Source: Horticoccus luteus
GTDB taxonomy: Bacteria; Verrucomicrobiota; Verrucomicrobiia; Opitutales; Opitutaceae
NCBI RefSeq assembly: GCF_019464535.1
Contig: NZ_CP080507.1
Span: 3,810,001-3,842,000 of the forward strand
Direction of reading: 5' to 3'
Length of the DNA stretch: 32,000 nucleotides
A program made the position numbers and the translations under genes. The notes under the pieces are model-generated. The model had not been told where the DNA came from and did not search any database. It saw only the letters and a program-made list of their open reading frames with translations. Positions 9,244 to 29,886 of this stretch are shown one piece after another. Within the stretch, counting starts at the first letter, position 1. The number at the start of each line of letters is the position of its first letter.

Positions 9244-9351
9244 TCCGGGACCTTCGCTTTCTTCGTCACCTTCCGTAAGAGGGATTGAAATTCGAGTTCG
9301 ATGGCGGCCGGTGCAGCGTGGCGCGGTCGTGGCAAAAAAGAGGCCGCCCGG

Positions 9352-10368: not shown

Positions 10369-10580
10369 GATAGGCGTTTTCGGTGCCGCGCCCCGCGTCT
10401 GAACGCAAGGGCAACCTTCATGAAATTTCGCGCCTCGCCCGTTTTTCGTCACGCGCATCCTCGACCTTCGCTCGCGACCGGGGCGAACCGTCCGCCCCGA
10501 AGCCGCGCACGCCATCGCGCGCCCTTCATTCCCCACCCCGAGCTTGAGTTTTCCTCGGCGGCGCATTCCGACTGTGGGCC

Positions 10581-12923
10581 ATGAGCCACGTATCCGCCTC
10601 TTTGTCCGCGCTTGGCGTGCGCGCGATCACCTTCCCCACCCGCTGCGACGTCGCCGAGCAAACCGCCGCCGACGAACTTGCGCGCCTCACGGATGCGCGC
10701 GTCGCCTCCGCCAATCGCCCCGGCAAGGGGTTCAACGTCGCTCTTGCCCACCGCGCCTGGGCGCCCGCCGCCGCGAAAGCGGCCGGCGATGCCGCGAGCT
10801 GGATCTGGCTGCGCGTCGACGATCACGGCGCCGGCGAAATCATCGCCACCGAGGGCTCCGGCCTCTTCGCCGCCGCGCGCCTCCTCGCCCACGGCCTCAC
10901 CGGCGCGACGCGCGAAAAACTCGCCGCCGGCCTCCTTCTGCCGCGCAGCTTCTCCATGAACCGCCCGATCTGGGATGGCTCGTTCGCGCAGTATTGGAAA
11001 TCCAACCGCGGGTTTTCCCCCGAGCAATACGCCGCGACGCTCGCCGAAGCCGGCTTCACCCACCTTGAGGTCAACAGTCTGCAGGCGAGTTTTCCCTACG
11101 AGGATTCCGTGCCCGGCGAATACTACTCGCAGTTCTACACCTACTGCCCCGGGTTCAACCACTTCATCGACACGCCGCTCACCCGCGGGTTCTGGCCCGC
11201 GCAATACCTCGATGCCAACCTCGAGCGCTTGCAAAACCTCGCCGCCCTCGCCCGCAAATACGGCCTCAAGCCCTCCGTCTGTCTTTACGAACCGCGCTCG
11301 CTCCCCGAACGATTCTTTCAACGTTATCCCACGCTCCGCGGCGCGCGCATCGATCATCCTTTCCGCTCCCGCCTGCCGCGTTACACGATGGCGCAGGATC
11401 ACCCCGTGGTGAAACATCACTTCCGCCTCGCCACGCAGGCGTTGATGAAGGCCGTGCCCGATCTCGACGCCATGTCGATCTGGACCAACGACAGCGGCGG
11501 CGGCTTCGAACACACCGCCTCGCTCTACATCGGCCGCAACGGCGGCCCCTACATGATTCGCGAATGGCGCAGCGCCGATAAGATTGCGGAAGCTTCCGGT
11601 AAAAGTATCGGCGCCTTCCTTCGCAACGTGCGCGGAGCCGCCGCCGAGGTGAACCCCGACTTCCAGCTCAGTCTTCGCATCGAACCGTTCAAGATGGAGC
11701 ACGACCATCTCAAGTCCGAGCTGGGCCGCGGCGTCCATTGGGAAGGCCCGTCCATGCTCGCGCGCGGTTATGCGCTGCCCTACAGCCATCCGCACTACGC
11801 CGACCAACAGGGCGTCGCCGGCGGCATGTTCCATTGCCAGATGGATCCGCGCGAAAAACCCGAGCTCGCGAAAGAACGCGCGCAGGGCATCGAACCCATT
11901 CTCACCTATTCCCCCGGCCCGGTGTGGAATCAGGAACCGCTCATCGGCATCCCCTGGCCGCGCATGATTCACGCGCGCCTCTCGCAGTTGAAAGAAATCG
12001 GCGCCGATCTCGTCAGCGCGATGGGCGGCCTCGCCAACACCACCGCCACTCCGTTCTGGCCCAATCCCGCCGCCATTCGCGCCGCGCAATTCACACCCGA
12101 ACGCAGCATCGACGACGTCCTTACCGACGAAGCCGTGCGCTTCGCCGGCACCACGCATGGCCCGGCGCTCGCCAAAGCCTGGGCGCTGTTCGAAGAAGCC
12201 GTCACGTGGCAGCCGATCGTGCCGCTGTTCTGCGGCTTCGGCTTCTGCTGGCAACGCACCTGGGACCGCCCGCTCGTGCCCGACATCGAAGCCATCCCCG
12301 CCGCCGATCGTTTCTATTACGAGCGCCACGGCTGCTTCCAGCACAACAACCCCGGGGTGAACGATCTCGGCAAAGACGTGCTCTTCAACCTCATCACCCG
12401 CGAATCCGCCGACAAGATGGTGCCGCGCTTCGACAAGAATCTGTTCCCGCGGATCGCCAAGACGGAAAAATTCATCGCCGGTGTCCTGGCCAAGTGCGGT
12501 GACGATGCCCAAGCCACCGCCGCCTTCGCCGATTTGCGCGACCGCATTCGCGCCTACCGGCATTGGGCCGTCACGCTGCGCAGCGTCGCCGCGTGGTGCT
12601 CCGGCGTCTACGGCTACCTCGAAAGCAAAACCGCCGCGCAAAAGAAAGCGCACGAGAAATTCCTCCAGGCCGCCATCGATCTCGAAATCGACAACGCGCG
12701 CGGTCTGCTCGACCACTTCGAGCATTCGCCCACCGAGTTCATGGTCGTGTCCGCCACCGGCGAAAACACGTTCATCTACGGCAAAAATTTCGGCGAACAC
12801 CTTCGCGCCAAAATCCGCCTGATGGAAAAATACCGGCACAAAAAGCCGCGCATCGACAAAGACATCCTCTGGCGCGCCCCCACCGGCCAGCCCTGGCCGG
12901 AAGGGTTTCCGTTTCAGAAGTGA
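10581..12923 (+). CDS. uncharacterised 780-aa cytoplasmic protein, paralog A (putative alpha/beta N-domain + TIM barrel + helical C-domain; possible carbohydrate-active enzyme)
   Basis: Long GC3-rich ORF with ATG at 10581 and no signal peptide. It is collinear with CDS 14061..16388, and I recognise no characterised family. Motifs include LAEAGFTHLEVN, CLYEPRS, YPTLRGARIDHPFRSRLPRY, NDSGGGFEHT, GRNGGPYMIREWR and LRIEPFK. Confidence 0.85.
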   Translation: MSHVSASLSALGVRAITFPTRCDVAEQTAADELARLTDARVASANRPGKGFNVALAHRAWAPAAAKAAGDAASWIWLRVDDHGAGEIIATEGSGLFAAARLLAHGLTGATREKLAAGLLLPRSFSMNRPIWDGSFAQYWKSNRGFSPEQYAATLAEAGFTHLEVNSLQASFPYEDSVPGEYYSQFYTYCPGFNHFIDTPLTRGFWPAQYLDANLERLQNLAALARKYGLKPSVCLYEPRSLPERFFQRYPTLRGARIDHPFRSRLPRYTMAQDHPVVKHHFRLATQALMKAVPDLDAMSIWTNDSGGGFEHTASLYIGRNGGPYMIREWRSADKIAEASGKSIGAFLRNVRGAAAEVNPDFQLSLRIEPFKMEHDHLKSELGRGVHWEGPSMLARGYALPYSHPHYADQQGVAGGMFHCQMDPREKPELAKERAQGIEPILTYSPGPVWNQEPLIGIPWPRMIHARLSQLKEIGADLVSAMGGLANTTATPFWPNPAAIRAAQFTPERSIDDVLTDEAVRFAGTTHGPALAKAWALFEEAVTWQPIVPLFCGFGFCWQRTWDRPLVPDIEAIPAADRFYYERHGCFQHNNPGVNDLGKDVLFNLITRESADKMVPRFDKNLFPRIAKTEKFIAGVLAKCGDDAQATAAFADLRDRIRAYRHWAVTLRSVAAWCSGVYGYLESKTAAQKKAHEKFLQAAIDLEIDNARGLLDHFEHSPTEFMVVSATGENTFIYGKNFGEHLRAKIRLMEKYRHKKPRIDKDILWRAPTGQPWPEGFPFQK

Positions 12924-12947
12924 TCCCGCCGGCCGCAGGCGCAGCCC

Positions 12948-13928
12948 ATGAATGCTCCCGGCCCTCAACCTCGGCAGCGCGCTGACACCGCGTGGTTCAA
13001 AGCATGCCGGTGGGGCTTGCTCGCGTGTTACCTGGCCGACACCGCGAGCAACCTCCAACCCATCGAGCTGTCCGTGGACGAGTGGAACCGCCGCATCGAT
13101 GCGTTCGATGTCGGCGCGCTCGCCGCTCAGCTCGCCACCGCACGCGTGCCGTATTTCATTCTCACGATCGGCCAGAACTCCGGCTATTATCTTTCGCCCA
13201 ACGCGACCTATGACCGCATCGTGGGCCGCGCGCCCAGCCGGCTCTCGCGCCGCGATCTGATCGCCGATCTCGCCGCCGCGCTTCAACCGCACGGCATCCG
13301 CCTTCTCGTCTATCTGCCCGCCACCGCTCCGCGCAACGACGAGCTCGCCAAAGCCCAATTGCAGGGCGACTCCGGCGAACACGGCCCCGACATGCGGCGC
13401 CACTGGGAGGAGATCTGCCGCGAGTGGTCGCTCCGCTGGGGCCGGGCCATCAGCGGCTGGTGGATCGACGGACCCTACGACGCGCCCGCCTATCAACACC
13501 CGGAGGCGCCCAACTACCGCAGCTACGCCGCAGCGCTGAAGGCCGGCAATCCCGACGCCATCGTCACCTTCAACAACGGCCTGCGCACGCCGATCTATTC
13601 GATGACCGAATACGAGGATTACACGCCCGGCGAAATCGAACGCGACATGACCGTCGCGCCCGGCATGCGCATGGACCCGCCGCGCCTCGATGCTTACCCC
13701 GAGTTCCTGAACGGCGCGCGTCTCCACGTGCTCACCCTCATGGGCGAATGGTGGGGCCAGGGCCCGGTGCGTTTCCCCGACGAAATGACCATCGGCTACA
13801 CCAAATTCATCAACGCTCGCGGTGGCGTCGTCACGTGGGATGCGCCGCTGCAAACCAATGGCACGCTTGACCCGGCGTTTCTTCCACAAATCACCGCCCT
13901 CGGTCGCACCATCTCCGGTTCCGCCTGA
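12948..13928 (+). CDS. glycoside-hydrolase-like TIM-barrel protein, distantly alpha-L-fucosidase (GH29)-like, cytoplasmic (326 aa)
   Basis: The block order resembles GH29: WFKACRWGLLACYL (compare WF..aKFGiFiHWG), VPYFILTIGQNSGYYLSPNATYD (compare aKYvVlTtKHHDGF.lw.S), RRDLIADLAAALQPHGIRLLVYL (compare DlV.el..A.Rk.GlkfG.Y), and ISGWWIDGPY (compare the WfDG nucleophile region). The canonical KHHDGF is not conserved and there is no signal peptide. The family call is tentative. Confidence 0.6.
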   Translation: MNAPGPQPRQRADTAWFKACRWGLLACYLADTASNLQPIELSVDEWNRRIDAFDVGALAAQLATARVPYFILTIGQNSGYYLSPNATYDRIVGRAPSRLSRRDLIADLAAALQPHGIRLLVYLPATAPRNDELAKAQLQGDSGEHGPDMRRHWEEICREWSLRWGRAISGWWIDGPYDAPAYQHPEAPNYRSYAAALKAGNPDAIVTFNNGLRTPIYSMTEYEDYTPGEIERDMTVAPGMRMDPPRLDAYPEFLNGARLHVLTLMGEWWGQGPVRFPDEMTIGYTKFINARGGVVTWDAPLQTNGTLDPAFLPQITALGRTISGSA

Positions 13929-14060
13929 TCGTCTCATCGGCGGTGGACGCGGCACAGCGTTGGTCCCACACGGGGAAGTGTGGTAGATAATCATCTTGTT
14001 CGGCGGTCAGCCTTGCATGTTGCGTCCGAGGCGCATTGGCCGGTGCCCGTCTCTTTCTCC

Positions 14061-16388
14061 ATGAGCCACCAATCTTCGCTCCTCGCCGCGCTCGACATGC
14101 GCACCATTTATTACCCGACCCGGTTTCAACCGGTCGAACAAACCGCCGCCGAGGAACTCGCCCGCCTGACCGGCGCCACCGCGCGCCGCTCCGTCCGCCC
14201 CGGCCAAGGCGTGAATCTCGCCCTCGCCTCCCGCGCGTGGGCCAAGTCCCTCCCCGCCGCTCAGGCCAACACCACCGGTTGGATGTGGCTCAAGCTCGCC
14301 GAGGATGGCACGGGCGAAATCATCGCCGACACCGGCGCGCTGCTTTACGCCGCCGTGCGTCTGCTCGCACACGGTCTCGGCGACGATGCCCGTGAGAAAC
14401 TTGCGCGCGGGCTCTTTTTGCCCGCCACGTTTCCGCACCATCGGCCGCATTGGGATAGTTGCCTCACGCAATACTGGCGCAGCGTGCGCAAATTCGACCG
14501 CGAAAAATATATAGCAACGCTCGCCGAAAGCGGCTTCACACACGTCGAGGTCAACGGACTGCAGGCGCACATGCCTTTCGAGGATACGGTCGTTTCAGAA
14601 TTCTATCCGCAGTTCTATACTTACTGCGCGGGCTTTAATCACTTCGTCGACACGCCGCTGACCGCCGGACTCTGGCCCACCCAATACCTCGAGGCCAATC
14701 TCCAGAACCTTCAGCAACTCGCCGCGCTGGGCCGCAAATACGGCCTCCAGCCCGGCCTGTGCATGTTCGAGCCGCGTTCGATGCCGGAACGACTCTTCCA
14801 GCGTTACCCGACCCTCCGCGGCGCCCGCGTCGATCATCCCTTCCGCTCCCGCCTGCCGCGCTACTGCCTGGCCCAGGATCACCCCGTCACCAAGCAGCAT
14901 TATCGCGCCGCCTTGCAGTCACTGATCAAGACCGTGCCCGATCTCAGCTACCTGAGCGTGTGGAGCAACGACAGCGGCGCCGGCTTCGAGCACACCGGCT
15001 CGCTCTACGTCGGCCGCAACGGCGGTCCTTATATGATCCGCGAATGGCGCAACCACGAGAAGATCGCCGAGGCCGCCGGCCAGAGCATCGTCCGCTACTT
15101 GCGCAACCTCCAACAGTCCGCCGCCGAGCTCAATCCCGACTTCGACATCTTCCTCCGCCTCGAACCTTTCAAGCTGGAACAGGATTATATCAAGGCCGGC
15201 ATGGGCAACCACATCGCTTGGGAAGCGCCCAGCCTGCTGGTCCGCGGCTACAGCCTGCCCTATACCCATCCGAAATATCCCACGATGAGCGGCGTGGCCG
15301 GCAGTCCGTTGCAGACGGAAATCGACGCCAGCGAACGCAAGGTGCTCGCCGAATCCCGGGCGCAAGGCGTTGAGCCCACCCTCCAATACGCCATCGGCAC
15401 CGCGGCCAGTTACGAGCCGCTCCTCGGCATTCCGTATCCGCGCTTGTTGCACAAAAAGCTCACCGCCATGCGCGAGCTCGGCCTCAAGCGCATCAGCGGC
15501 TACGGCGGCCTCAACAACCCCCAGCAGACGCCTTACTGGCCCAACCCCGCCGTCATCCGTGCCGCCCAGTTCATGCCGGACAAGTCCATCGACGACGTGC
15601 TGCTCGACGCCGCCCGCGAGTTCGTCGGCGCCAACCACGCCCCCGCGCTCGTGGCGTGTTGGGATGCCTTTGACGAGGCGTTGAGCTGGCAGCCGCCCGT
15701 CGCGCTTTTCACCGTCGCCTTCTCGTGGCAACGCACCTTCGACCGGCCCTACGTTCCCGACATCGAGGCGATTCCCGCCCAAGAACGCGCTTACTACGAA
15801 CGCTTCGGCTGCTTTCAATATAACAACCCGAGCCTGAACGATATTGGCAAAGACGTGCTCTTCGATCTCGTCACGCGCGAACAAGGTGGACAAGCGCTCG
15901 CCGGCTTCGATCAAAACGTCATTCCCCGCGTCGAAAAACTTCTCGCACGCCTCGCGCAGCTTGAAGCGCAAACCGCCGGCGAACCCAGCGTCCAGGCCGT
16001 GTTCAGCGACCTGCTCGATCGCACGCGCGCCTACCGGGCGCTCGTCGGTTCGCTCCGCATGGTGTGCGCGTGGTGCACCCATGTTTACGGCTATATCGAA
16101 AGCACCAAAGCAACCGACAAAAAGAAACACGAGCGGGCGCTCCAAACCGCCATCGACGACGAACTCGTCAACACCGCGAACCTCATCGCGCTCCTCGAAG
16201 CGAATCGCACGGAAGTCATGATTCTCTCCGCCATCGGCAACAATACGTTCTGTTACGGCGAAGACTTGCCCGATTTATTGCGCGAGAAAATCCGGCTCAT
16301 GAAAAAATACCGCCACCACCCGCCGCGCATCGACCAGAATATCCTCTGGCGCCCGCTCCCCGGGTCGCAGTGGCCGAAATTCGATTGA
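14061..16388 (+). CDS. uncharacterised 775-aa cytoplasmic protein, paralog B of CDS 10581..12923
   Basis: An internal ATG at 14061 gives MSHQSSLLAALDMRTIYYPTRFQPVEQTAAEELARL..., matching paralog A's MSHVSASLSALGVRAITFPTRCDVAEQTAADELARL.... The proteins are collinear to the C-terminus (...KIRLMKKYRHHPPRIDQNILWRP...). The 27 codons upstream in listed ORF 13980..16388 have no counterpart in paralog A. Confidence 0.85.
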   Translation: MSHQSSLLAALDMRTIYYPTRFQPVEQTAAEELARLTGATARRSVRPGQGVNLALASRAWAKSLPAAQANTTGWMWLKLAEDGTGEIIADTGALLYAAVRLLAHGLGDDAREKLARGLFLPATFPHHRPHWDSCLTQYWRSVRKFDREKYIATLAESGFTHVEVNGLQAHMPFEDTVVSEFYPQFYTYCAGFNHFVDTPLTAGLWPTQYLEANLQNLQQLAALGRKYGLQPGLCMFEPRSMPERLFQRYPTLRGARVDHPFRSRLPRYCLAQDHPVTKQHYRAALQSLIKTVPDLSYLSVWSNDSGAGFEHTGSLYVGRNGGPYMIREWRNHEKIAEAAGQSIVRYLRNLQQSAAELNPDFDIFLRLEPFKLEQDYIKAGMGNHIAWEAPSLLVRGYSLPYTHPKYPTMSGVAGSPLQTEIDASERKVLAESRAQGVEPTLQYAIGTAASYEPLLGIPYPRLLHKKLTAMRELGLKRISGYGGLNNPQQTPYWPNPAVIRAAQFMPDKSIDDVLLDAAREFVGANHAPALVACWDAFDEALSWQPPVALFTVAFSWQRTFDRPYVPDIEAIPAQERAYYERFGCFQYNNPSLNDIGKDVLFDLVTREQGGQALAGFDQNVIPRVEKLLARLAQLEAQTAGEPSVQAVFSDLLDRTRAYRALVGSLRMVCAWCTHVYGYIESTKATDKKKHERALQTAIDDELVNTANLIALLEANRTEVMILSAIGNNTFCYGEDLPDLLREKIRLMKKYRHHPPRIDQNILWRPLPGSQWPKFD

Positions 16389-16487: not shown

Positions 16488-17339
16488 TCACCCGCCGTGC
16501 GCCCGGCGGCGAAACTCCGACGGACTCATGCCCATCACCTGCTTGAACGCTTTCGAAAAGTGAAACACATCGCAAAACTCCAGCTCTTCCGCGAGCGCCT
16601 TGAACCCGTGGCTGCCGTGGTAAATCGCCGCGCCCGCCCGGTCGATTTTCCGACGCTTTTGAAACTGCCCCGGTGACTGTCCCACGCGCGCGGTGAACTG
16701 CTTGCGGAAGTTGTCGTAACTCAAACCCACGGCCGCCGCGACTTCCTGCGGCGTCGCCCAACGGCGCGCCCCCGGACTCCCCAGCAAACGCTGGCTCGCC
16801 TCCAGCCAAGTTGCGGTCGCCGGTCCCTCCGTCGCCTCGACCCGCGCCGCCAGCGCATCGCTCAGCAACGCCGAAAATCGGCCCACCGCCCGCAACGCCG
16901 CCGCCGGCGTATGGCCTTCCTCCGGCGCCACGATTTCCGCCATTCGCCGCCCCCAGTAATCCACCGGCTCCAACCGCCACACCGGCGGCGCCGCCGCGAG
17001 CAACCCCTGCGCCCGCCACAAATCGAACTGCGGCCCGTTGAACACGAAATAGATTTGCTGCCATGACTGTCCCTCCTTCGGCCCGTAAGCGTGCGCCAGC
17101 TCCGGCATGATCAGCACCAAATCTCCGCCGCTCAGATCGCACGCATAACCGTTTGCATCGCGGTAGTAGCCGTCCACCTCCAGCAGGTAAACGAGCGCGT
17201 AGCTTCCCAAAACTCGCATCGTCTTGGGATCCAGCCCGCGCGCGTCCCGCGCCACACCCGCCAACTGCAGCTCGCCTATGCTCGTCCGAAGCGGCGCTTC
17301 CAGCCATGCTTGGCCCAGCGTGGGAGATGTTTCCGGCAT
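16488..17339 (-). CDS. AraC/XylS family transcriptional regulator with N-terminal cupin-like sensor domain
   Basis: The C-terminal HTH pair is ...ATPQEVAAAVGLSYDNFRKQFTARVGQSPGQFQKRRKIDRAGAAIYHGSHGFKALAEELEFCDVFHFSKAFKQVMGMSPSEFRR. The N-terminus (...YALVYLLEVDGYYRDANGYACDLSGGDLVLIMPELAHAYGP...) is an AraC-type ligand-binding barrel. I chose the ATG at 17339 (MPETSP...); a TTG at 17348 is the alternative. Confidence 0.85.
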   Translation of the reverse strand: MPETSPTLGQAWLEAPLRTSIGELQLAGVARDARGLDPKTMRVLGSYALVYLLEVDGYYRDANGYACDLSGGDLVLIMPELAHAYGPKEGQSWQQIYFVFNGPQFDLWRAQGLLAAAPPVWRLEPVDYWGRRMAEIVAPEEGHTPAAALRAVGRFSALLSDALAARVEATEGPATATWLEASQRLLGSPGARRWATPQEVAAAVGLSYDNFRKQFTARVGQSPGQFQKRRKIDRAGAAIYHGSHGFKALAEELEFCDVFHFSKAFKQVMGMSPSEFRRRAHGG

Positions 17340-17488
17340 CGCGCCCAAAATTTACATGCCAAATCACATTTCAACCATTTTTTCTCCAGCCTTCTGCCTG
17401 TATGTTGGAGCCGGTTATTTGTTGTTTCTGCGGGCGGTTGCGACGGTTCCGCGTCGGGCCGCCCGCTTGTTCTCCCCTCTTCAAAATC

Positions 17489-18409
17489 ATGAGCACTGCC
17501 ACCCTCCCCCAAATCTATTCCTACGGCCACGCGCTCGACATGAGCGACGACAAGTTCGGCCTCCTGCGCGACTCCTCCGATGCCGCCACCGACTTCTTGG
17601 AACTCCGCCGGCGGTTTGCCGAAGACGGCTACCTTTACATGAAGGGCTATCTCGACCGCGCCGAAGTGCTCGAAGCCCGCGCCAGCTTGACGGCGCGCCT
17701 CGCGGAAGCCGGCGTCCTCGATGAAAATTATCCCGCCATCGAAGGCGTCGCGAAGAAAGACGCCGGTTACGTTTTCAAACCCGAAATCACCAACGGCAAC
17801 GAGGCCGTGCAACGCCTCCTCTATTCCGGTCGCCTGCTCGATTTTTATCGCCAGTTCTACGGCGAAGACGTCCGCCACTACGATTACACGTGGCTGCGCG
17901 CCATCTCGCCCGGCAAGGGGACCAATCCCCATTGCGATCTCCCTTACATGGGCCGCGGCACGCACAAGCACATGACGTGCTGGGTGCCCTACGGCGATGT
18001 CTCGTTCGACCTCGGTGGCCTCATGGTGCTCGAAGGTTCCCAGAAGCGCATGGACCTGTTGGAGAACTACGTTTACCGCGACGTCGACGCCTACTGCGAA
18101 AACAAGCCCAAGGAAGTGGCCAAAGCGAAGACCGGCGCGTGGTCGTTCACAGGCACGCTGTCCCACAACCCGCCCGCCGTGCGCAACAAGTTCGGCGGCC
18201 GCTGGCTTTCGACTGAATATCAGGCCGGCGACTTCATCACCTTCGGCATGTTCCTCGTGCACGCCTCCCTCGACAACCGCACGGAAAACCGTCTGCGCAT
18301 CTCGAGCGACAGTCGTTTCCAACGCGCCTCGGAGCCCGTCGATGAACGCTGGGTCGGCGCCAACCCGCCCGCCCACGGCGTATCCGGTAAACGCGGTCTG
18401 ATCTGCTGA
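17489..18409 (+). CDS. phytanoyl-CoA dioxygenase (PhyH) family Fe(II)/2-oxoglutarate-dependent oxygenase (306 aa)
   Basis: An ATG at 17489 gives MSTATLPQIY.... The N-terminal region ...ELRRRFAEDGYLYMKGYLDRAEV... has the PhyH pattern. The HxD motif is in GTNPHCDLPYMG, the distal His in FGMFLVHASLDN, and the Arg in LRISSDSRF. The upstream part of listed ORF 17153..18409 overlaps the AraC gene and is rejected. Confidence 0.8.
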   Translation: MSTATLPQIYSYGHALDMSDDKFGLLRDSSDAATDFLELRRRFAEDGYLYMKGYLDRAEVLEARASLTARLAEAGVLDENYPAIEGVAKKDAGYVFKPEITNGNEAVQRLLYSGRLLDFYRQFYGEDVRHYDYTWLRAISPGKGTNPHCDLPYMGRGTHKHMTCWVPYGDVSFDLGGLMVLEGSQKRMDLLENYVYRDVDAYCENKPKEVAKAKTGAWSFTGTLSHNPPAVRNKFGGRWLSTEYQAGDFITFGMFLVHASLDNRTENRLRISSDSRFQRASEPVDERWVGANPPAHGVSGKRGLIC

Positions 18410-18415
18410 CGCCGT

Positions 18416-18435
18416 CGCGCCGCGCGCGCTTTTTT
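18416..18435 (+). terminator. weak terminator candidate directly after the PhyH gene
   Basis: An alternating GC run (cgcg...cgcg, 18416-18429) capable of only a short 4-bp stem is followed by T6 (18430-18435), 7 nt after the stop. Confidence 0.3.
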
Positions 18436-18489
18436 CTCTCGTTGCGTCGGCGAAATGGCGCTCACTCCGCTTCTCCCTCCTTCATGCAG

Positions 18490-18516
18490 GCGGGGTGCCC
18501 TCACCCCGCATTTTTT
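18490..18516 (+). terminator. strong Rho-independent terminator
   Basis: gcggggtg (18490-97), loop ccct, caccccgc (18502-09), then a and TTTTTT (18511-16). This is a perfect 8-bp GC-rich stem with a tetraloop and U-tract, oriented for plus-strand transcripts. Confidence 0.7.
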
Positions 18517-18617
18517 AGCCCCCCATCATCGTAAGAGCACTCCTCTGGCCGTCTCGCCATCGCGCCGCCGCGCCCACCGCCACGCTCTCGCCGCCAATCC
18601 TCCCTTCTTCGCCGCCC

Positions 18618-19952
18618 ATGTCTGCCACCGCTTCCTCGCCCGCCACCTCGGCCTCGACGCCCTCCTCCAGCCGCATGGCGGCGGTCAACGAAATGACGCG
18701 GCTTCTGCGGCTGCTCTTCGAGGTGGAGCGGGAATTTCTGCGCACCGTCACCACGCTCATTTATCGCGTCGGCGAGCCGGAGCTGAAATATCTCATTTGT
18801 CAGCACGCATGGGAAAGCGCCGGACATGCCCGCTTCCTCCGTGAACGCGGACGCGAACTCACTGGCTTTGGCACGTCCGAAAACGTGCGCGATTCCATCC
18901 GCCGCGTCTTCGTCGAAGCCGTCGGCTCCGCGTCCTCGGATGCCCTCGTCTTGACGGCGGGCTTTTATGGCGTCCTCAAGCCCGCGTTGCTCGCCGCGTA
19001 TCGCCACTATCTCAAAGTCACCGATCACCTCGCTGACTGGCCCTCGAAAAAACTCGTCGAAGAATTCATCGGCGACGAAGAACGCCACCTCGCCGAAATC
19101 GCGCCGTTTATCACCGGCATCGAGGCGCGCGCGTGGACCCTCCATCTCACCCAGGCGCTCGACGATCTGGGCGGTTGGCTGGGCCAGGAAACGCGTCTGC
19201 CGCTCCCCGCCGGTTTCGTCTGGCAGCAGGAGAAGACGCCCTACGCGCATCCCCTCACCTGCAACCGCGGCAAGTATCCCGTGTGCTCCAGCATCTTCGG
19301 CTTTGATCCGACCGAGGATCCGATCGTCCGCCCCTGGCTTACCGATCCGAAGACCGATGCCCGCGTCATCCGCCTGATGGTTTACGTTTGGCTGATGATG
19401 GAAATGGATGCCATCGACTACCTCGCCACCGTCTTCATCGAAACGCTATCCGCGCCCTTCGATCTGCACCACGACCTCGCGCGCCACCTCTGGGATGAAT
19501 CGCGCCATAGCCAGTTCGGTTTCCGGCAACTGCCCAAACTCGGCGTCGACCTGATGACCGTGGAGCAGTCGCTGGAACTCTATAATATTCTCATCCACAT
19601 GCCGCCGCATGAGCGCTACGCAATGATGACGATGGAGTTCGAAGCCGGCAGTTTTCCGACGAAGGCCGCCGTGATGGACCGCGTGCGCGAGCTCAACGAT
19701 TTCGAAGCCGACACGCTCCTCGCCTTCGATCGCAACGACGAACAGAACCACGTCCGCTACGGCCACCGGTGGCTGCCGGAGATGATGGCCCTGTTTGGCG
19801 AAACGCGTCCCGTCGCGGAATTTGTCAAAGCCACGCAGGAGAAATTCCGCGAGCTCACGAAAGCGCACGGCAACAAAACACCGCACTCGCTCCCGAAAGA
19901 AAAGCGGCTCACCGGCGAAAAGATCCTCCGCCTCGCCGGCGTCAGCGCGTGA
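18618..19952 (+). CDS. tandem ferritin-like (four-helix-bundle diiron carboxylate) domain protein, function unknown (444 aa)
   Basis: The C-terminal half carries a full E...ExxH...E...ExxH set: LMMEMDAIDYL, HLWDESRHSQFGF, MTMEFEAGSF, DRNDEQNHVRYGHRW. The N-terminal half has a partial set (FEVEREF, AWESAGH, GDEERHLAEI). The first 19 codons (SATASSPATSASTPSSS) are low complexity, so the true start may be the ATG at 18675 (MAAVNEMTRLL...). Confidence 0.75.
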   Translation: MSATASSPATSASTPSSSRMAAVNEMTRLLRLLFEVEREFLRTVTTLIYRVGEPELKYLICQHAWESAGHARFLRERGRELTGFGTSENVRDSIRRVFVEAVGSASSDALVLTAGFYGVLKPALLAAYRHYLKVTDHLADWPSKKLVEEFIGDEERHLAEIAPFITGIEARAWTLHLTQALDDLGGWLGQETRLPLPAGFVWQQEKTPYAHPLTCNRGKYPVCSSIFGFDPTEDPIVRPWLTDPKTDARVIRLMVYVWLMMEMDAIDYLATVFIETLSAPFDLHHDLARHLWDESRHSQFGFRQLPKLGVDLMTVEQSLELYNILIHMPPHERYAMMTMEFEAGSFPTKAAVMDRVRELNDFEADTLLAFDRNDEQNHVRYGHRWLPEMMALFGETRPVAEFVKATQEKFRELTKAHGNKTPHSLPKEKRLTGEKILRLAGVSA

Positions 19953-20037
19953 GCGCCGTCGCGGCGCGCGCAAGGCGTGCCCCAACTCTTCACCGCGGGA
20001 TGATCCGCATCACCGCCGATTCCGCCGGCACTCCGGG

Positions 20038-20712
20038 CTACGCGCGAGCGCGGCGCCGCCACACGGCGAAACCGAGTATCGCGGCCCCCGCCATCATCGC
20101 ATAGGTCGAGGGCTCAGGGATCGCCGAGGCGCCGCTGCCGAGGTTTTGGTAATAGGTATTGTTACCGTCCGCGATGAAGGTGTTATAGTAACCATCGGCC
20201 GGCAGTGCACCCATATAGCCGGCGGACGTGGTCGGCGACCCATCATACCGCAGAGATCCCGCGCTCAATGTGAAGACGTCGCCCGCGGTCAAAAGCGTAT
20301 TAGCCGTATCCGTGGTGGCGTAGAACACCACATCGTCGGGGTGCACCGTGTTAAAATTAAAGTTCGACGCGAAAAAAGTATTGATCGTTTGAGTGCCGTC
20401 GCTGCTTCCGGCCCCCGTGCTCGTGTAGGTCGGTGCTACGCCTCCCACCGCTCCTTGCGTGCTGAAAATAGCCGAGCTCGTGGTGACCGATTGAAACACA
20501 AAAGTGGGATTTACGGCGCCGATGCCCGTGCTCCCAGTGAGCGTGTAAACAATAGGCGAAGACCAGGAAATCTTCACCTCCGATCCGTGGCCGCCCGTAA
20601 ATGTCAGATATACTCCCTGCGCCCGCGTTGTAGCGGCGAGTGTGAACGCGATCAGAGCGACGAGCGAGGCGGCGGCCTTGCGACTGCACGGGACGAGAGC
20701 GATCATTTTCAT
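20038..20712 (-). CDS. PEP-CTERM sorting-domain surface protein (224 aa)
   Basis: An ATG (cat 20710-20712) gives MKMIALVPCSRKAAASLVALIAFTLAATTRAQG (signal peptide). The C-terminus ...AIPEPSTYAMMAGAAILGFAVWRRRARA is a textbook PEP-CTERM motif, TM helix and Arg cluster. The Thr/Ser/Gly/Asn-rich body has no recognisable domain. Confidence 0.85.
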   Translation of the reverse strand: MKMIALVPCSRKAAASLVALIAFTLAATTRAQGVYLTFTGGHGSEVKISWSSPIVYTLTGSTGIGAVNPTFVFQSVTTSSAIFSTQGAVGGVAPTYTSTGAGSSDGTQTINTFFASNFNFNTVHPDDVVFYATTDTANTLLTAGDVFTLSAGSLRYDGSPTTSAGYMGALPADGYYNTFIADGNNTYYQNLGSGASAIPEPSTYAMMAGAAILGFAVWRRRARA

Positions 20713-20938
20713 AGTGCTGGCTGTTTTCTCCGATTCACCGGGACCATTAACGAGTGGTTGATAATGCAAATAACAGAGGAATGAATCCTCGGAGGTGATT
20801 TCACGGTATTTTATTCCCCGCTTCCGCTACCGGAAATCGCCCGTCTGAAGATGTTGCGTTTACGACTGAGTCGAAGACTCGGCGGAAATCACTGACCCTT
20901 CGTCCGCCGCAATAGTGCAAGCCGGACATCGGCCGGAC

Positions 20939-21931
20939 TCACGACGCACCACCGGAGGACATACGGCGACGCCGCCAGCAAGCCAGCCCGAGCGCCGCCA
21001 ATCCCGCCACAGCCGCATAGGTCGCGGGCTCCGGCACGGCGCTCATTGGACCCACCGCGATGCCATAAGGCGAACTGAGGCCGGTGATGGTGGTGAAGCC
21101 CGCGAGTGGAGCGCCGGTCAAAGCATCGAAGCCCTTCACCGTGCCATCGTTGCCTGAGACGAACAAATCAGTTCCATATACCATGATACCCTGGGGTCCA
21201 GTCAGTCCCGAGACCAACGGGCTTCCTGCGGCCGTTCCATCGGTAGCATTGAATGTCCAGATCGTCCCGTCACCCCCGTTCGCCACGTAGAGAGTGTTCC
21301 CCGACACGGCCAAGCCATGGGGAAGATTTAAATTCGCGGTGATCGTCAATGTCGGAGTGTTGCTGAAGGAGCTGATGCTATAGGCTAAAATTTTATTCAT
21401 ACCGGTGCCTGTGGTCGCCTGCGATACGAAGAGCGTATCGCCCGACACGGCCAGACCATACGGATTGGTCGTCCCCGCCGACACGTTCGCGAGCTGATTC
21501 CCGCTCAGGTCATATTTGAAAACATTGCCGCTGTTGAAGTCCGTGATAAACATATTGCTGGCCGTCACCGCGACGCCCCACGGATTGTTGAGTCCAGTCA
21601 TCCCGCCTCCTAAAACGGCCGTAGTGCTGGCGGTCACCCCGCCGGCACCATCAAGTGTGTAGGCGCCGATCGATTTTTCGCTCGCGCCGGACTTGGCGAC
21701 ATAAAGGGTCGATCCCGAGAGGGCGAGCCCCTCGAAGTAAGTGGGCGCGGATCCCGACAGATTCACGAGGGATGAGTTGATGAGTGTGCCATCAATATTG
21801 TAGCTGCTGACGCCATTCGCGCCATTCGGGTCGGCCACAAAGATCGTTTGGGCGCGCAATGCCGCCGGGAGGAGCGCGAATAGCGGCAGGACGGATGCTA
21901 ACAACCAGGAACGGACGGAAACTGTGTTCAT
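20939..21931 (-). CDS. PEP-CTERM sorting-domain protein with six-bladed NHL/YncE-like beta-propeller (330 aa)
   Basis: The signal peptide is MNTVSVRSWLLASVLPLFALLPAALRAQ. Six blade repeats fit the pattern P.G[LI]AV.G.TL[YF]V (FEGLALSGSTLYVA, PWGVAVTASNMFIT, PYGLAVSGDTLFVS, PHGLAVSGNTLYVA, PQGIMVYGTDLFVS, PYGIAVGP). The C-terminus is VPEPATYAAVAGLAALGLACWRRRR. Confidence 0.85.
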   Translation of the reverse strand: MNTVSVRSWLLASVLPLFALLPAALRAQTIFVADPNGANGVSSYNIDGTLINSSLVNLSGSAPTYFEGLALSGSTLYVAKSGASEKSIGAYTLDGAGGVTASTTAVLGGGMTGLNNPWGVAVTASNMFITDFNSGNVFKYDLSGNQLANVSAGTTNPYGLAVSGDTLFVSQATTGTGMNKILAYSISSFSNTPTLTITANLNLPHGLAVSGNTLYVANGGDGTIWTFNATDGTAAGSPLVSGLTGPQGIMVYGTDLFVSGNDGTVKGFDALTGAPLAGFTTITGLSSPYGIAVGPMSAVPEPATYAAVAGLAALGLACWRRRRMSSGGAS

Positions 21932-22087
21932 AGAGATGAGGCGGGGTTATATGATGTAGGGGTTGGAGGCACTGTCGTCGCCAAACGACCGCGAGGGGCT
22001 GGACCGAGCTAATCCCGGATCTGGCCCACCCGCCGCGTCATGCGGTCCGTGTTATTGCCAACCAACGGCGAGTCCATCCGGCGGGGA

Positions 22088-22118
22088 CGAATCGCGGTGC
22101 CCGTGTGGCGAATCGCGG
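22088..22118. promoter_or_regulatory. candidate LytTR response-regulator binding site: perfect 10-bp direct repeat CGAATCGCGG x2 with an 11-bp spacer (21-bp phasing)
   Basis: CGAATCGCGG occurs at 22088-22097 and again at 22109-22118. The site is 19-49 nt beyond the stop of the LytTR regulator gene and 157-187 nt upstream of the ATG of the PEP-CTERM propeller gene on the same strand. The function is inference. Confidence 0.4.
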
Positions 22119-22136
22119 GGCTCGGCCACTGGCAGC

Positions 22137-22889
22137 CTAGGGCTGCAGCCGCAGTGCGCCCAAACGTTCGCGCAACTCGCTCCAGCGATCGCGGCTGGCC
22201 GGAACCGGCTCCCGCGCCCCGGCGACATGGAGCAACGTATGCTCGTCACCGTCCCGCTCATAACGCGTCACCTGCGCGAGGTTGACGATCTGGGTGCGGT
22301 GCACGCGCATGAAATGCGAACCGGGCAGGATGTCCTCCCACGCCTTCAGGCTCTTCCGCAAAAAGACTTTCGCCCCATCCACGAGTTGCACTTCGGAATA
22401 ATTGGCGCGCGCGCCGATCAGGCTGATCTGCGCCACCGGCGCAAAGCGCGCGCGCAGGCCCGCCCGCAGATACACGGTGTCGTCGATCGTGAGCGCACGG
22501 CGGGGCATCTCTTCGGTCGCCGCATCGTCGGCCGCGGGCGTCAGCGCTTCAAGCCGCCGCAATGTTTCCGCCAGCCGCGCGGGCGCGATCGGCTTCAAGA
22601 GGTAGTCGAGCGCATTGATCTCAAACGCACGCAACGCATAGGCGTCATGGGCGGTGGTGAATACAATCCTCGCGCCCGCCCGCACGAGCGGCACCAACGC
22701 GAAGGAGTTTCCGCCCACCAATTGGATGTCGAGAAACACGAGGTCGTAGTCCGGGCGCGCCAGCAATTCCCCTGCGGTCCGCAACGTCCCTGCCTCGGCC
22801 ACCACGACCACCTCCGGATGGGCCGCCAGCCGCGTCCGCAGATCCGCGCGCGCGGCGGCTTCGTCTTCGATGAGGAGCGCTCGGGGCAT
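22137..22889 (-). CDS. LytTR-family two-component response regulator (REC + LytTR DNA-binding domain)
   Basis: An ATG (cat 22887-22889) gives MPRALLIEDEAAARADLRTRL...PDYDLVFLDIQLVGGNSF...VFTTAHDAYALRAFEINALDYLLKP (receiver domain). This is followed by ...LRKSLKAWEDILPGSHFMRVHRTQIVNLAQV... (LytTR). Confidence 0.9.
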   Translation of the reverse strand: MPRALLIEDEAAARADLRTRLAAHPEVVVVAEAGTLRTAGELLARPDYDLVFLDIQLVGGNSFALVPLVRAGARIVFTTAHDAYALRAFEINALDYLLKPIAPARLAETLRRLEALTPAADDAATEEMPRRALTIDDTVYLRAGLRARFAPVAQISLIGARANYSEVQLVDGAKVFLRKSLKAWEDILPGSHFMRVHRTQIVNLAQVTRYERDGDEHTLLHVAGAREPVPASRDRWSELRERLGALRLQP

Positions 22890-22896
22890 CGCCAAT

Positions 22897-25578
22897 TTAA
22901 ATGACCGGCACCGCCCCAAGGTGCAATCTCACCGTGACCCAACCCTCGCCCGGCAACACCTCCAGCGCGTGCGCGTGCGGATAATAGCGCCGGAGCCGCT
23001 CCCGCAGATTGTCCAGGCCGATGCCCAGCGACGGCCGCGCGTGCCCTCCCGCGGGGGCCACCCACACACCCGTGTTGCTCACCTCCAGTCGCAATCCGCC
23101 ATCGTCCGCCCGCGCTGCGACGATGCGCACCCCGACCCGCTCCGCGCTCGTCGCACACCCGTATTTCAACGCGTTCTCCACCAGCGGCAGCAGCAGAAAA
23201 TGTGGCAGTCGCGCCTCTGCGAGCGCTTCGACTCCGACGATCTCCACCGCCAGCATATCGCCCCACCGCGATTGCTCGATCGCGAGGTAGGCGCTCAGCA
23301 ACTTTATCTCCGCCCCCAGCGTCGTCCACTCCTGGTCGTTGTCGCGCTGCAGCGTCAACCGGCAGAAATGCGCCAGTTGCTCCACCATCGCCCGCGCCGT
23401 CGCCGCTTCCGGGGGAAGCGAGCCGCTGATGGAGGCGAGGGTGTTGAACAGAAAATGTGGGTTGAGCTGGTAACGCAGCACTTCGAGCCGCGCCTTTTCC
23501 TCGGCCAGCCGCGCCGCGATCTTTTCCTCCGATTCGAGCCGGTTGAGCCGCGTAAGCTCCCGGTTCTTTTCCGCCAGCTCCCTCGTCCGCTCACCCAGCT
23601 CCGCCGTGCGGGCCGTCACGAGCGCTTCGAGTCGCGCCGCATGTCGACGCAGCGTTCGTGTGCGCCACTGCACCACGCCCACCACCATACCAACCGCCGC
23701 CATCACGTAGGCCGCGACCGCCCACCCGCTCCACCACCACGGCGGCAACACGGAAAACGTGATCGCCGCCGGCGTGCTCAGCACACCATCGCCATCACGG
23801 GCGCGCACCTCGAAACGATACGCGCCCGCCGGCAGCCGTGTGAAGCTTCGCGTGCGTTCGCTGGACCAATCCGACCAACTCCGCTCGAAACCCTCCAAGC
23901 GGCTCTGATACCGGACCGCGTCAGCCATTTGGCATCGCATCGCGACATAATCGAACCGCAGCGGCGCATGCGTCGGTGCCAACTCGTCGCCGGCGTGCAC
24001 ACCCGCCGTCGTTAGCACCACGCGGAAGGGCACCGGCGGGGGAAACGCCCGCGCCAGCTCCACCCGCAAAAGCCCCTGTGCCCCGCCGATCCACAAAATC
24101 CGGTTTCCTGGCGCGCCTTCCTCCAGCAGACATTCCACCTTGCCGGCACTTTTCCGGACGAGAGCCGGCAGCTGGTGCAACGCCCGCCCGTCCGGCGCCA
24201 TCAGCTCTATGCCGCTCTCCCTCGCCACCCAGCGCGCGCCACGCACGCTCGGATCCTGCGCCGCGCACGCCACGGGATCCGCGATGCCATGCTCCCCGCC
24301 GCCGTTTGGACGATCGTCGATCGGCAAGTTGTCCGCCGCCTCGAACCGGGCCGCCTCGCCCTGGGAATTCATCGGCCGCAAGCGAAACCCATCGTCGCCG
24401 CATCTCACATACAGCACGCCGTCGCGCCGCTCCACCCCCGTCACCGCGCCGGCCGCCAGACCGTTGACCGCATCGAACACCGTCACGGCCGACGGCCATT
24501 CAAGCCGGAAGGCGCCTTCCGTCGTGCCCAGCCAGAGCCCACCCTCGCGATCGAAAAACACATCGAGCAGTGTTTTCAGCCAGAGCCCGAGCGTCTCGTC
24601 GATCGGACCGACATACCGGCCGGCCGCATCGAACCGCATCCCGCCGGAGCCGCTCGCGGAATCAAAAACCACCGCCAGCTCGCCGGTCTCCGCCCGCGCC
24701 GCCCGCAGAATGTTCTTCCCGGCCAGCCACCGATTCGCCTCCAACGGCCAGACGCGGATATGACCGTCCACCAGTTCGAAAAACCCATTGTGCTCCGTCA
24801 GGAAGCGCAGCGATCCCGCCGGCCCGGCTTCCATCAGCAGGATCACGTTTTCGCGCAACACTGGATCGTCCGCCACCAACTCGAGCCGGTCGCCCGCGAT
24901 CCGGCATAAGGGCCGGCCCGGCGAGGTGACGTAGGCCACGCCGGCGACGCCGTGCAAATGCGTCGTCCGCGCATACGGAGCCGCGCGGCACGGGATCACG
25001 GTGAACGTCGCATCCTGCCAGCGCAGGATCTTTTCGGCGTCCGCGAAATAAACCGCCCGACCCACGGCCAGCACGTCGTGAATCTCGTCGTAGCCAAGTT
25101 CGGTCGCCGGCAGGCGATCAGCCAACGAAACAAATTCCGCCCCCGCGCCGGTGCCACGCAACCAGCCGATCACGCCCGCGCCACCGACAAACACCCGGCC
25201 GTCGGCGGCGCGCGCGAATCGCCGCGGCGCAGCCGATTCCTCCGGCATCACGATCGGTCGCCATTCCGCCCCGTCGTAAGAACGCAGCACACGACCGCTC
25301 GCGAGATACATGAATCCGTCGCGATCCTGCGTCACGGCCTGGTTGGTGTAGCCGATCTTGTCCCGCCCCGGGGAAAACTCCCGGATCAGCGGGTGCCCGA
25401 GTTCGTTTTCCGCCGCCCGACCCGTGCCAACCGGCAGCGCGAACCCGCAGACAAGAACCAAGCGGGAAAGGAGGCGGGCGGGACGCACCAAGGGAAGGGC
25501 TGCGGGAAGGTCGTAAGTGGGAAAACCTTCCCCGGCGAATAATTTTCGCACGCAGCCCGCGGGGTGCCGTGCGCCCAC
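22897..25578 (-). CDS. sensor histidine kinase, LytS/YehU type (PF06580-like), with large periplasmic beta-propeller + Y_Y_Y sensor domain
   Basis: The N-terminal anchor is LLSRLVLVCGFALPV. Long propeller-type repeats are present (GGLWLGTTEGAFRL, ILWIGGAQGLLRV...). The Y_Y_Y block is VRYQSRLEGFERSWSDWSSERTRSFTRLPAGAYRFEVRARDGDG and the TM is WWWSGWAVAAYVMAAVGMVVGVV. These are followed by a coiled coil, LRYQLNPHFLFNTLASISG (His_kinase box) and an HATPase region (...LLPLVENALKYG...LEVSNTG...GIGLDNLRERL). The listed start is GTG at 25578, with an alternative GTG at 25488. The gene ends 7 nt before the regulator gene. Confidence 0.85.
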   Translation of the reverse strand: MGARHPAGCVRKLFAGEGFPTYDLPAALPLVRPARLLSRLVLVCGFALPVGTGRAAENELGHPLIREFSPGRDKIGYTNQAVTQDRDGFMYLASGRVLRSYDGAEWRPIVMPEESAAPRRFARAADGRVFVGGAGVIGWLRGTGAGAEFVSLADRLPATELGYDEIHDVLAVGRAVYFADAEKILRWQDATFTVIPCRAAPYARTTHLHGVAGVAYVTSPGRPLCRIAGDRLELVADDPVLRENVILLMEAGPAGSLRFLTEHNGFFELVDGHIRVWPLEANRWLAGKNILRAARAETGELAVVFDSASGSGGMRFDAAGRYVGPIDETLGLWLKTLLDVFFDREGGLWLGTTEGAFRLEWPSAVTVFDAVNGLAAGAVTGVERRDGVLYVRCGDDGFRLRPMNSQGEAARFEAADNLPIDDRPNGGGEHGIADPVACAAQDPSVRGARWVARESGIELMAPDGRALHQLPALVRKSAGKVECLLEEGAPGNRILWIGGAQGLLRVELARAFPPPVPFRVVLTTAGVHAGDELAPTHAPLRFDYVAMRCQMADAVRYQSRLEGFERSWSDWSSERTRSFTRLPAGAYRFEVRARDGDGVLSTPAAITFSVLPPWWWSGWAVAAYVMAAVGMVVGVVQWRTRTLRRHAARLEALVTARTAELGERTRELAEKNRELTRLNRLESEEKIAARLAEEKARLEVLRYQLNPHFLFNTLASISGSLPPEAATARAMVEQLAHFCRLTLQRDNDQEWTTLGAEIKLLSAYLAIEQSRWGDMLAVEIVGVEALAEARLPHFLLLPLVENALKYGCATSAERVGVRIVAARADDGGLRLEVSNTGVWVAPAGGHARPSLGIGLDNLRERLRRYYPHAHALEVLPGEGWVTVRLHLGAVPVI

Positions 25579-25685
25579 AAAACATTTCCGCCCGCGATCG
25601 CGCTGGCCTTCTCCCGACCTCGCGCCCGCCGTTGGTGCCTCGATCGCGCATTGCGCGCCACGGGCTTGCCGTCATCCTCCCGCGT

Positions 25686-26489: not shown

Positions 26490-26614
26490 CGCCGCCCATG
26501 CTTCGCGCCCGCGTCTCCGCGTGGCTCCGACTGATGTGATTGTTCAACGGCTTCGCCGCTTGAAATAGCCATACGGGCTTTGTTTTCTGAACAACTTTCG
26601 TTCACTGACACCGC

Positions 26615-28741: not shown

Positions 28742-28751
28742 ACACCTTCGT

Positions 28752-29852: not shown

Positions 29853-29886
29853 GCCCTCCAGCCTCCCCGCCAGACCCGTTCCCGCC

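Follow-up and report, generated by a model that had tools for sequence, protein, structure and literature searches.

PhnY and PhnZ reportedly pair a Fe/2-oxoglutarate (2OG) hydroxylase with a diiron oxygenase. PhnY/PhnZ and TmpA/TmpB share one formal arrangement, in which the gene of a Fe/2OG hydroxylase lies beside that of a diiron oxygenase. The same formal pairing occurs in a stretch of 32,000 nucleotides (nt) of Horticoccus luteus DNA (contig NZ_CP080507.1, positions 3,810,001 to 3,842,000), referred to here as the window and numbered from its first letter. The cassette at 16488–19952 comprises an AraC-type regulator gene on the minus strand and, divergent from it on the plus strand, a PhyH-family dioxygenase gene followed by the gene of a two-domain DUF455 protein; all three genes were confirmed to be present. 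In contrast to PhnZ, TmpB, and MIOX, which are HD-domain enzymes, the DUF455 protein has a predicted ferritin fold and matches DUF455 alone in Pfam. The first-pass annotation had likened the locus to PhnY/PhnZ: the pairing of 2OG and diiron genes holds, but it is accompanied by neither an HD domain nor a phosphonate gene. A phosphonate substrate was rejected, since no gene for phosphonate uptake or metabolism was found in the window or in any of the approximately 170 related loci covered by annotation or searches.

The cassette is real and uncharacterized: its proteins belong to known superfamilies, and their pairing is not described in the searchable literature. We lean toward the reading that it is an AraC-controlled operon whose two O2-dependent iron enzymes would act in the same pathway for breaking down a small molecule derived from carbohydrate. 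No function has been assigned to DUF455, a widespread family of ferritin-like proteins, and the cassette offers an unusually clean entry point for finding one, with a dedicated sensor-regulator, an identifiable putative operator, and a fixed 2OG-dioxygenase partner. Freshwater, soil, and marine Verrucomicrobiota rank among the major degraders of polysaccharides, and if both iron enzymes act together, they would add an oxygen-dependent step of a new kind to the turnover of glycans or amino sugars. Even without joint action, the cassette gives a well-defined starting point for assigning functions to two enzyme subfamilies and to a family of ~800-amino-acid (aa) proteins encoded upstream.

Conservation of the cassette

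The GC content of the window is 59–69%, and the close homologs of its genes belong to Opitutaceae (Verrucomicrobiota). We scanned gene neighborhoods in one genome per GTDB species and found relatives in 265 species, of which the best 80 loci were tabulated; these 80 were all from Opitutaceae or Opitutales, with 72–89% identity to the DUF455 protein. The PhyH gene was located directly upstream of the DUF455 gene on the same strand at every testable locus (78/78), and the AraC gene was divergent and upstream of PhyH at 68 of 73. In line with purifying selection, the DUF455 and PhyH proteins were also the most conserved of the cluster, with median identities to the window of 82% and 79%, respectively, followed by an ABC transporter (75%) and by the Gfo/Idh/MocA dehydrogenase, the ~800-aa family, the SSF symporter, and AraC (61–67%). 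The PhyH–DUF455 pair was further found in approximately 65 metagenome loci, with the same arrangement wherever the upstream flank sufficed; one exception was a lineage of the P0242 type at 48% identity (L095).

The genes around the cassette were less constant. The Gfo/Idh/MocA dehydrogenase gene was found within 4.3 kb downstream of the DUF455 gene at 62 of 63 testable loci, an SSF symporter gene directly downstream at 41 of 73, and an MsbA-like ABC transporter gene further downstream, after the dehydrogenase, at 41 of 54. A member of the ~800-aa family, which is of no known kind, was encoded upstream at 45 of 57. The outer flanks vary from genome to genome among the Opitutaceae loci and are otherwise scrambled. 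The three-gene cassette is the constant unit, also in the marine clade described next, while the peripheral genes vary; nothing else speaks as strongly for cooperation between PhyH and the DUF455 protein.

A marine clade carries the cassette in a second context. Its GC content is 50–54%, and its proteins are 65–70% (DUF455), 65–71% (PhyH), and 40–49% (AraC) identical to those of the window. The divergent AraC gene and the PhyH–DUF455 pair are followed, in the same direction, by genes for a creatininase-family amidohydrolase, an aldo/keto reductase, a Gfo/Idh/MocA dehydrogenase that differs from that of the window, and a class-V aminotransferase; no ABC exporter was found in this clade. A xylose-isomerase-like TIM barrel (AP_endonuc_2) and a heparinase II/III-like protein are encoded upstream, as is a distant member of the ~800-aa family. 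The co-directional array of six genes was noted at 9321–14304 in locus L143 and recurs in at least 12 other marine loci (e.g., L098, L110, L115, L137–L141, L146, L157, and L172). Its composition hints at an amide- or amine-bearing substrate.

The first-pass annotation had described the three genes as one module. The unbroken adjacency of PhyH and DUF455 in species representatives, together with its persistence in a marine clade with other flanks, supports the conclusion that they form a genuine, selected module, and the co-occurrence of the two families is strongly positive within the clade.

The two predicted iron enzymes

The DUF455 gene (18618–19952, plus strand) encodes a protein of 444 aa, and its ATG and the GRMAAV motif that follows are conserved in relatives. 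Residues 1 to approximately 19 (18618–18674) form a tail rich in Ser, Thr, Ala, and Pro, which is variable in length and sequence among relatives. The Pfam match (PF04305) covers residues 261–417 only (E = 9e-13; 48.8 bits versus 34.3; positions 73–230 of 247 in the model), and AlphaFold2 modeled two four-helix bundles (pLDDT 86.9, pTM 0.87). The C-terminal domain, at approximately residues 240–420, is the DUF455 domain with the full ligand set E262, E294xxH297, E340/E342, and E375xxH378 on the predicted helices 248–275, 281–307, 330–359, and 362–392. These ligands were invariant in 31 close sequences, and their equivalents were invariant in 66 distant ones (19–30% identity). The N-terminal domain, at approximately residues 15–183, is a degenerate bundle with E35, E66xxxH70, and E154xxH157; the helix-3 Glu is missing, ExxxH replaces the first ExxH, and the second ExxH is kept in few distant members. 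The protein has only one predicted canonical diiron site, located in the C-terminal bundle. BLAST detected no similarity between the N- and C-terminal halves; their profile–profile comparison gave a probability of 87% (E = 4e-6, 133 columns), which indicates that the two bundles arose by an ancient internal duplication. An earlier description of this protein as tandem ferritin-like with a complete diiron set applies in part: both bundles are seen by AlphaFold2 and by the profile comparison, and the C-terminal half has all ligands, whereas the N-terminal half is degenerate.

An exhaustive search for relatives retrieved 438 clusters (50% identity) at E ≤ 0.001, many of them full-length at 24–50% identity, from Actinomycetota, Limnochordia, Alicyclobacillus, Hydrogenedentes, Chloroflexota, Armatimonadetes, and Acidobacteria. 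The Opitutaceae clade matched the distant family of 66 sequences with an hhalign probability of 100% (E = 4e-68), and the two-domain architecture marks a separate subfamily spanning several phyla. A plasmid search with the DUF455 protein retrieved only canonical single-domain DUF455, from Geobacillus. Among solved structures, the profile of the wide two-domain family matched a putative homolog of VlmB (6D9F/8WVR) best, with E = 4e-9 over approximately 190 residues, including both ligand motifs, DE(x)RH and DExxH; 6D9F was reached neither by the window protein alone nor by the close-clade profile. VlmB, an O2-dependent diiron oxygenase, turns a hydrazine into the azoxy group found in valanimycin (PMC11705231). 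The match supports a catalytic role for the DUF455 protein without pointing to a specific reaction, and its assignment to DUF455 places it outside the characterized non-catalytic families, in line with the first-pass view of it as an enzyme.

Foldseek comparison of the 444-aa model with the PDB returned bacterioferritin, Dps, and YciF, with target TM-scores of 0.5–0.73 and E ≥ 0.05, and no two-domain relative. Sequence similarity to bacterioferritins gave E ≥ 0.16 for the window protein and 1e-5 or weaker for the family profile. An iron-storage ferritin, bacterioferritin, or Dps was rejected on architecture, as these proteins are single bundles of approximately 160–180 aa, compared with two fused bundles in 444 aa.

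The N-terminal bundle bears on one further explanation, in which the DUF455 protein would be an accessory partner of PhyH that delivers or repairs iron, handles O2 or peroxide, or presents the substrate via its degenerate N-terminal domain. This would fit the strict co-occurrence with one particular PhyH ortholog, and also the high conservation of the N-terminal domain despite its lost canonical ligands. However, in all phyla, and in PhyH-less lineages as well, the C-terminal domain has retained a complete diiron set of the catalytic type, and we know of no precedent for an accessory partner of this type among 2OG dioxygenases. We consider such a role highly improbable.

The PhyH gene extends from the ATG at 17489 to 18409 on the plus strand and encodes a Fe(II)/2OG dioxygenase of 306 aa; its start is backed by full-length homologs (100% coverage, 77–94% identity). 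Pfam PF05721 matched residues 40–264 over positions 1–209 of the 213-position model (49.9 bits, cutoff 22; E = 6e-13). The motifs NPHCDLPY, FLVHASLDN, and RLRISSDSRF were all found, and H148, D150, H258, R270, and R276 were invariant in 39 homologs, confirming the previously noted intact HxD...H triad and arginine. The triad begins with HxD rather than the HxA/G of halogenases. The segment with the distal His and Arg aligned to PtlH (2RDN), with RISSDSR opposite RMSMDTR, and either R270 or R276 would bind the C5 carboxylate of 2OG. The best match to a solved structure had E of only approximately 0.05, and no NCBIfam equivalog was matched. The orthologous group is restricted to Opitutaceae-like bacteria, and a literature search on phytanoyl-CoA dioxygenase with Opitutaceae returned nothing relevant.

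According to these features, PhyH would be a mononuclear Fe(II)/2OG dioxygenase, and the DUF455 protein would be a ferritin-fold diiron oxidase or oxygenase with its active site in the C-terminal bundle. The two could form an obligate two-step pair, with PhyH hydroxylating a sugar, amino-sugar, or cyclitol derivative and the DUF455 enzyme then oxidatively cleaving a bond or demethylating. We regard this as fairly unlikely; if true, DUF455 would have its first assigned function, and PhnZ and MIOX, both HD-domain enzymes, would have a ferritin-fold counterpart. A related proposal is that PhyH hydroxylates a C–H beside a heteroatom and the diiron protein then oxidatively cleaves the adjacent C–C, C–P, C–N, or C–O bond, as a ferritin-fold analog of PhnY/PhnZ or MIOX. 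The strict 2OG–diiron pairing in two clades with different flanks fits consecutive steps, the marine amidohydrolase and aminotransferase suggest a heteroatom-bearing substrate, and diiron relatives such as VlmB perform multi-electron oxidations. In contrast, none of the loci has an HD domain or a phosphonate-related gene, and relatives with 47–50% identity are located in sugar operons without PhyH. The sequence gives no sign of reaction order or bond cleavage, and O-demethylation, hydroxylation, or oxidative deamination would fit equally. Hydroxylation followed by cleavage thus appears quite unlikely to us.

Regulator, probable operator and intergenic spacers

The regulator gene (16488–17348, minus strand) encodes a 286-aa protein of the AraC/XylS family. 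Pfam detected a C-terminal double helix-turn-helix (HTH_18 and HTH_AraC, E = 3e-16) and an N-terminal ligand-binding cupin sensor (AraC_binding, E = 4e-5; 23.7 bits, cutoff 21.1), the domain composition of this family. The divergent intergenic region toward PhyH occupies 17349–17488; it had been noted before with a length of 149 nt, which we correct to 140 nt.

An operator-like box of 28 nt, TACATG-N5-TCnCAnTTCAACCATTT, is located at 17353–17380 (plus strand). The box matched once in the window, with no match expected by chance. When up to 4 mismatches were allowed over the 21 fixed positions, it was present in 122 of 127 AraC-containing loci, the marine clade included, at 80–100 nt upstream of the PhyH ATG. 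The box was absent from all 12 AraC-less loci, where the ~800-aa gene runs directly and co-directionally into PhyH, and no locus had an off-target match. Because its presence covaries with AraC, the box is the probable AraC operator, and a predicted cognate operator next to the regulated promoter is a further feature of the AraC family. In an alignment of 77 intergenic regions, the columns of a second box (17398–17406, plus strand; consensus GTGTATCTT, in the window CTGTATGTT) were more than 90% conserved, and this box is a candidate −10-like promoter element. We propose that a small molecule, probably derived from a sugar, is sensed by the cupin domain of the AraC-type activator, and that this activator would bind the box at 17353–17380 and drive divergent transcription of the PhyH and DUF455 genes.

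The spacer between PhyH and DUF455 is hypervariable, with a median length of 94 nt and a range of 3–325 nt over 86 loci; it is 30 nt or shorter in 18 of them. In the window, it contains a strong intrinsic-terminator-like hairpin on the plus strand (18490–18516), in which GCGGGGTG-CCCT-CACCCCGC at 18490–18509 forms a stem of 8 bp (7 of them GC) and T6 follows at 18511–18516. This was the strongest site of the terminator scan within 13.5–21 kb, and the strong terminator reported by the first-pass annotation is real. A weaker terminator-like hairpin (18416–18428, with T6; 18416–18436, plus strand) follows directly after the PhyH stop and is not conserved in relatives. By the criteria of the scanning tool, terminator-like sites occurred in 4 of the 86 spacers; the strong ones were those of the window, and a comparable strong terminator was absent from the other 85. 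Perfect GC-rich hairpins of 7–9 bp without a T-run were observed in 14 of the 86 spacers (L004, L008, L011, L013, and L014 among them) and are mutually unrelated. They may be elements of RNA stability or attenuation, or small repeat insertions.

The terminator had been taken as a reason to doubt co-regulation of the two genes. This doubt applies to the window but not to the family, since a canonical terminator was found only here among the 86 loci; as a peculiarity of this lineage, the terminator gives no reason to doubt that the two genes are co-regulated across the family. Spacers as short as 3 nt and the lack of a canonical terminator outside the window count for co-transcription of the two genes. 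In this lineage, the terminator might attenuate the DUF455 gene.

Several points count against the reading that we favor. In the window, 208 nt lie between the PhyH and DUF455 genes and include the strong terminator, and the search for a sigma-70-like promoter of the DUF455 gene detected none. All paired loci stem from one order-level lineage. Distant two-domain relatives of the DUF455 protein (24–50% identity) had an adjacent PhyH gene in none of seven contexts, so the partnership is clade-specific and could be inherited synteny. The AlphaFold2 model of PhyH, obtained from a shallow alignment of 39 close homologs, reached a pLDDT of only 43.6. The substrate class is read from the neighboring genes, and these differ between the two clades. 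Finally, a search of the literature for DUF455 returned incidental mentions (many of DUF4553) and none on function.

The distant contexts show where the co-occurrence of the two families ends: it holds inside the Opitutales-like clade, but not among the distant two-domain relatives. In Alicyclobacillus, Hydrogenedentes, and three metagenome contigs, no PhyH gene adjoined the two-domain DUF455 gene; on one distant contig, a PhyH gene lay approximately 6 kb away, past a sugar ABC transporter, GH4, and PfkB. The nearest outgroup copy, P0241 with 50% identity, has a GxGYxYP protein, Gfo, SSF, and a GH78 rhamnosidase nearby. Another at 47–50% identity neighbors a CBM-like gene and a SulP transporter, and a further one in the same identity range a sugar ABC transporter, a WbsX-like protein, an unknown protein of 951 aa, RhaM, and an AraA/FucI-like isomerase; none of these three has PhyH. 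Since these relatives have no adjacent PhyH, the diiron protein can work without this partner, and it appears to be recurrently tied to carbohydrate, especially deoxy-sugar, catabolism. In P0241 (L090, 8001–9338), ligands are replaced: the position of E262 is R, E375 is changed to D, and H378 to L. This protein may be a non-catalytic or re-purposed paralog. Its position beside Gfo, considered as a sign of a deeper DUF455–Gfo link, was dropped because the lost ligands make it an unreliable ortholog.

On these grounds, the adjacency could be inherited synteny, with the DUF455 protein an independently expressed iron-handling or oxidative-stress protein of the ferritin or rubrerythrin type. The strong terminator and long spacer of the window, the unrelated contexts of the distant relatives, the restriction of structural matches to bacterioferritin, Dps, and YciF bundles, and the JGI label "rubrerythrin" on many homologs are in accord with this explanation, and the very high conservation could reflect a housekeeping role. 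However, the adjacency outlasts reshuffled neighbors in two clades, the short spacers and the uniqueness of the terminator argue against separate expression, and the two-domain architecture is unlike that of 24-mer or 12-mer storage ferritins. The family profile also fits the VlmB homolog better than it fits bacterioferritins. We therefore judge inherited synteny decidedly unlikely and favor two iron enzymes serving one catabolic route.

Neighboring genes and comparison with known systems

Upstream of the cassette, the window encodes a ~775–802-aa protein of a family without description (13980–16388, plus strand; the likely true start is M28 at 14061) and a paralog with 57% identity (10581–12923). 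Searches of Pfam (even at E ≤ 10), NCBIfam, and the PDB gave no match for the ~800-aa protein, nor did a 15-sequence profile against the PDB. The paralogs have no signal peptide and share many invariant residues, such as FEPR, NDSGxGFEH, and EPFK. The plasmid collection yielded one remote homolog (Subdoligranulum); its gene is flanked by those of a sugar ABC transporter and of a GH88 unsaturated glucuronyl hydrolase, and an AraC-type regulator is encoded close by. The family may be a carbohydrate-active enzyme family not yet described. Between the two paralogs, an open reading frame (ORF) of 326 aa (12948–13928) has a weak, sub-threshold match to GH29 alpha-L-fucosidase (E = 1e-3). Other upstream genes encode a heparinase II/III-like protein, an L-fucono-1,5-lactonase-like amidohydrolase, a 2-hydroxyacid dehydrogenase, a short-chain dehydrogenase (SDR) resembling L-fucose or L-rhamnose dehydrogenases, and a Zn-dependent alcohol dehydrogenase resembling threonine or scyllo-inosose dehydrogenases. 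The ORF of the last (9352–10566) has 404 aa, compared with 338 aa in orthologs, and its start is probably located approximately 65 codons downstream.

Downstream of the cassette, a block of 6.6 kb (19953–26614) encodes two PEP-CTERM proteins, one of them with NHL/beta-propeller repeats, an FGE-sulfatase-like protein, a LytTR response regulator, and a Reg_prop/Y_Y_Y histidine kinase; its GC content drops to 0.59 at 20–22 kb. This block looks like an insertion or rearrangement of this lineage. The SSF–Gfo–ABC block (26615–31650) is kept in the window and is moved away from the DUF455 gene by the 6.6-kb block. It begins with the SSF sodium:solute symporter (26615–28741, plus strand; Pfam), which has an N-terminal extension of approximately 215–240 aa without a family match. 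The Gfo/Idh/MocA dehydrogenase (28734–29852, plus strand; Pfam) resembles IolG and WlbA 3-dehydrogenases, and its gene is overlapped by the SSF gene by 8 nt, which suggests translational coupling.

This block bears on a biosynthetic or envelope role, in which PhyH, the DUF455 protein, and the WlbA-like Gfo protein would tailor a nucleotide sugar or lipid that is flipped by the MsbA-like ABC exporter. Among solved structures, the Gfo protein is closest to the WlbA UDP-GlcNAcA 3-dehydrogenases 3Q2I (E = 1e-34) and 3Q2K (E = 1e-31), the exporter gene follows Gfo in most testable loci and starts 35 nt after it in the window, and the genes are near-core and highly conserved. Nevertheless, catabolic systems are where an AraC/cupin sensor with its own operator is typically found, the overlapping symporter is an importer, and the cluster contains no glycosyltransferase or nucleotide-sugar genes. 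The marine clade, moreover, combines the lack of an ABC exporter with a different Gfo protein. An envelope function is very unlikely in our assessment.

Judging from gene content, every informative context of the cassette appears to be one of carbohydrate catabolism (glycan, deoxy-sugar, amino-sugar, or cyclitol), consistent with the catabolic operon that we favor. The two operon contexts, symporter plus dehydrogenase and amidohydrolase plus reductase, dehydrogenase, and aminotransferase, constrain the substrate. The marine amidohydrolase and aminotransferase, taken together with the freshwater symporter and IolG-like dehydrogenase, suggest that the substrate is an amino-sugar, deoxy-sugar, or cyclitol carrying a modification, with methylation, amination, acylation, or sulfation as candidates. 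Such a compound would be freed by the neighboring glycan-degrading proteins, taken up through the SSF symporter, and then oxidized further by the Gfo/Idh/MocA dehydrogenase, and both iron enzymes would act on it or on its successive intermediates.

Comparison with other described systems places the cassette near several of them. VlmB works with the membrane protein VlmO in a cluster for an N–N natural product, whereas no such genes occur in any context of the cassette. KanJ, a PhyH-family enzyme, oxidatively deaminates an aminoglycoside; together with EctD, it illustrates that amino sugars or osmolyte-like compounds are among the substrates of the family. The moc gene set for rhizopine and inosamine comprises the Gfo-type dehydrogenase MocA, the TIM-barrel protein MocC, and the oxygenase system MocDEF (PMC10107442). 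An oxygenase step and a Gfo/Idh/MocA dehydrogenase are common to moc and the cassette and, in the marine clade, so are a xylose-isomerase-like TIM barrel and an aminotransferase. The regulator is MocR in moc but AraC in the cassette, and MocD is neither a PhyH nor a DUF455 protein. KanJ and moc are thus analogies, not memberships. The PhyH protein shares its Pfam family and HxD...H triad with the solved structures PtlH (2RDN) and SnoN (5EP9), and its C-terminal Arg motif aligns to PtlH. The 444-aa protein shares the E/ExxH/E/ExxH four-helix bundle with canonical DUF455 (PF04305; "uncharacterized ferritin-like protein" in COG) and adds to it a degenerate N-terminal bundle.

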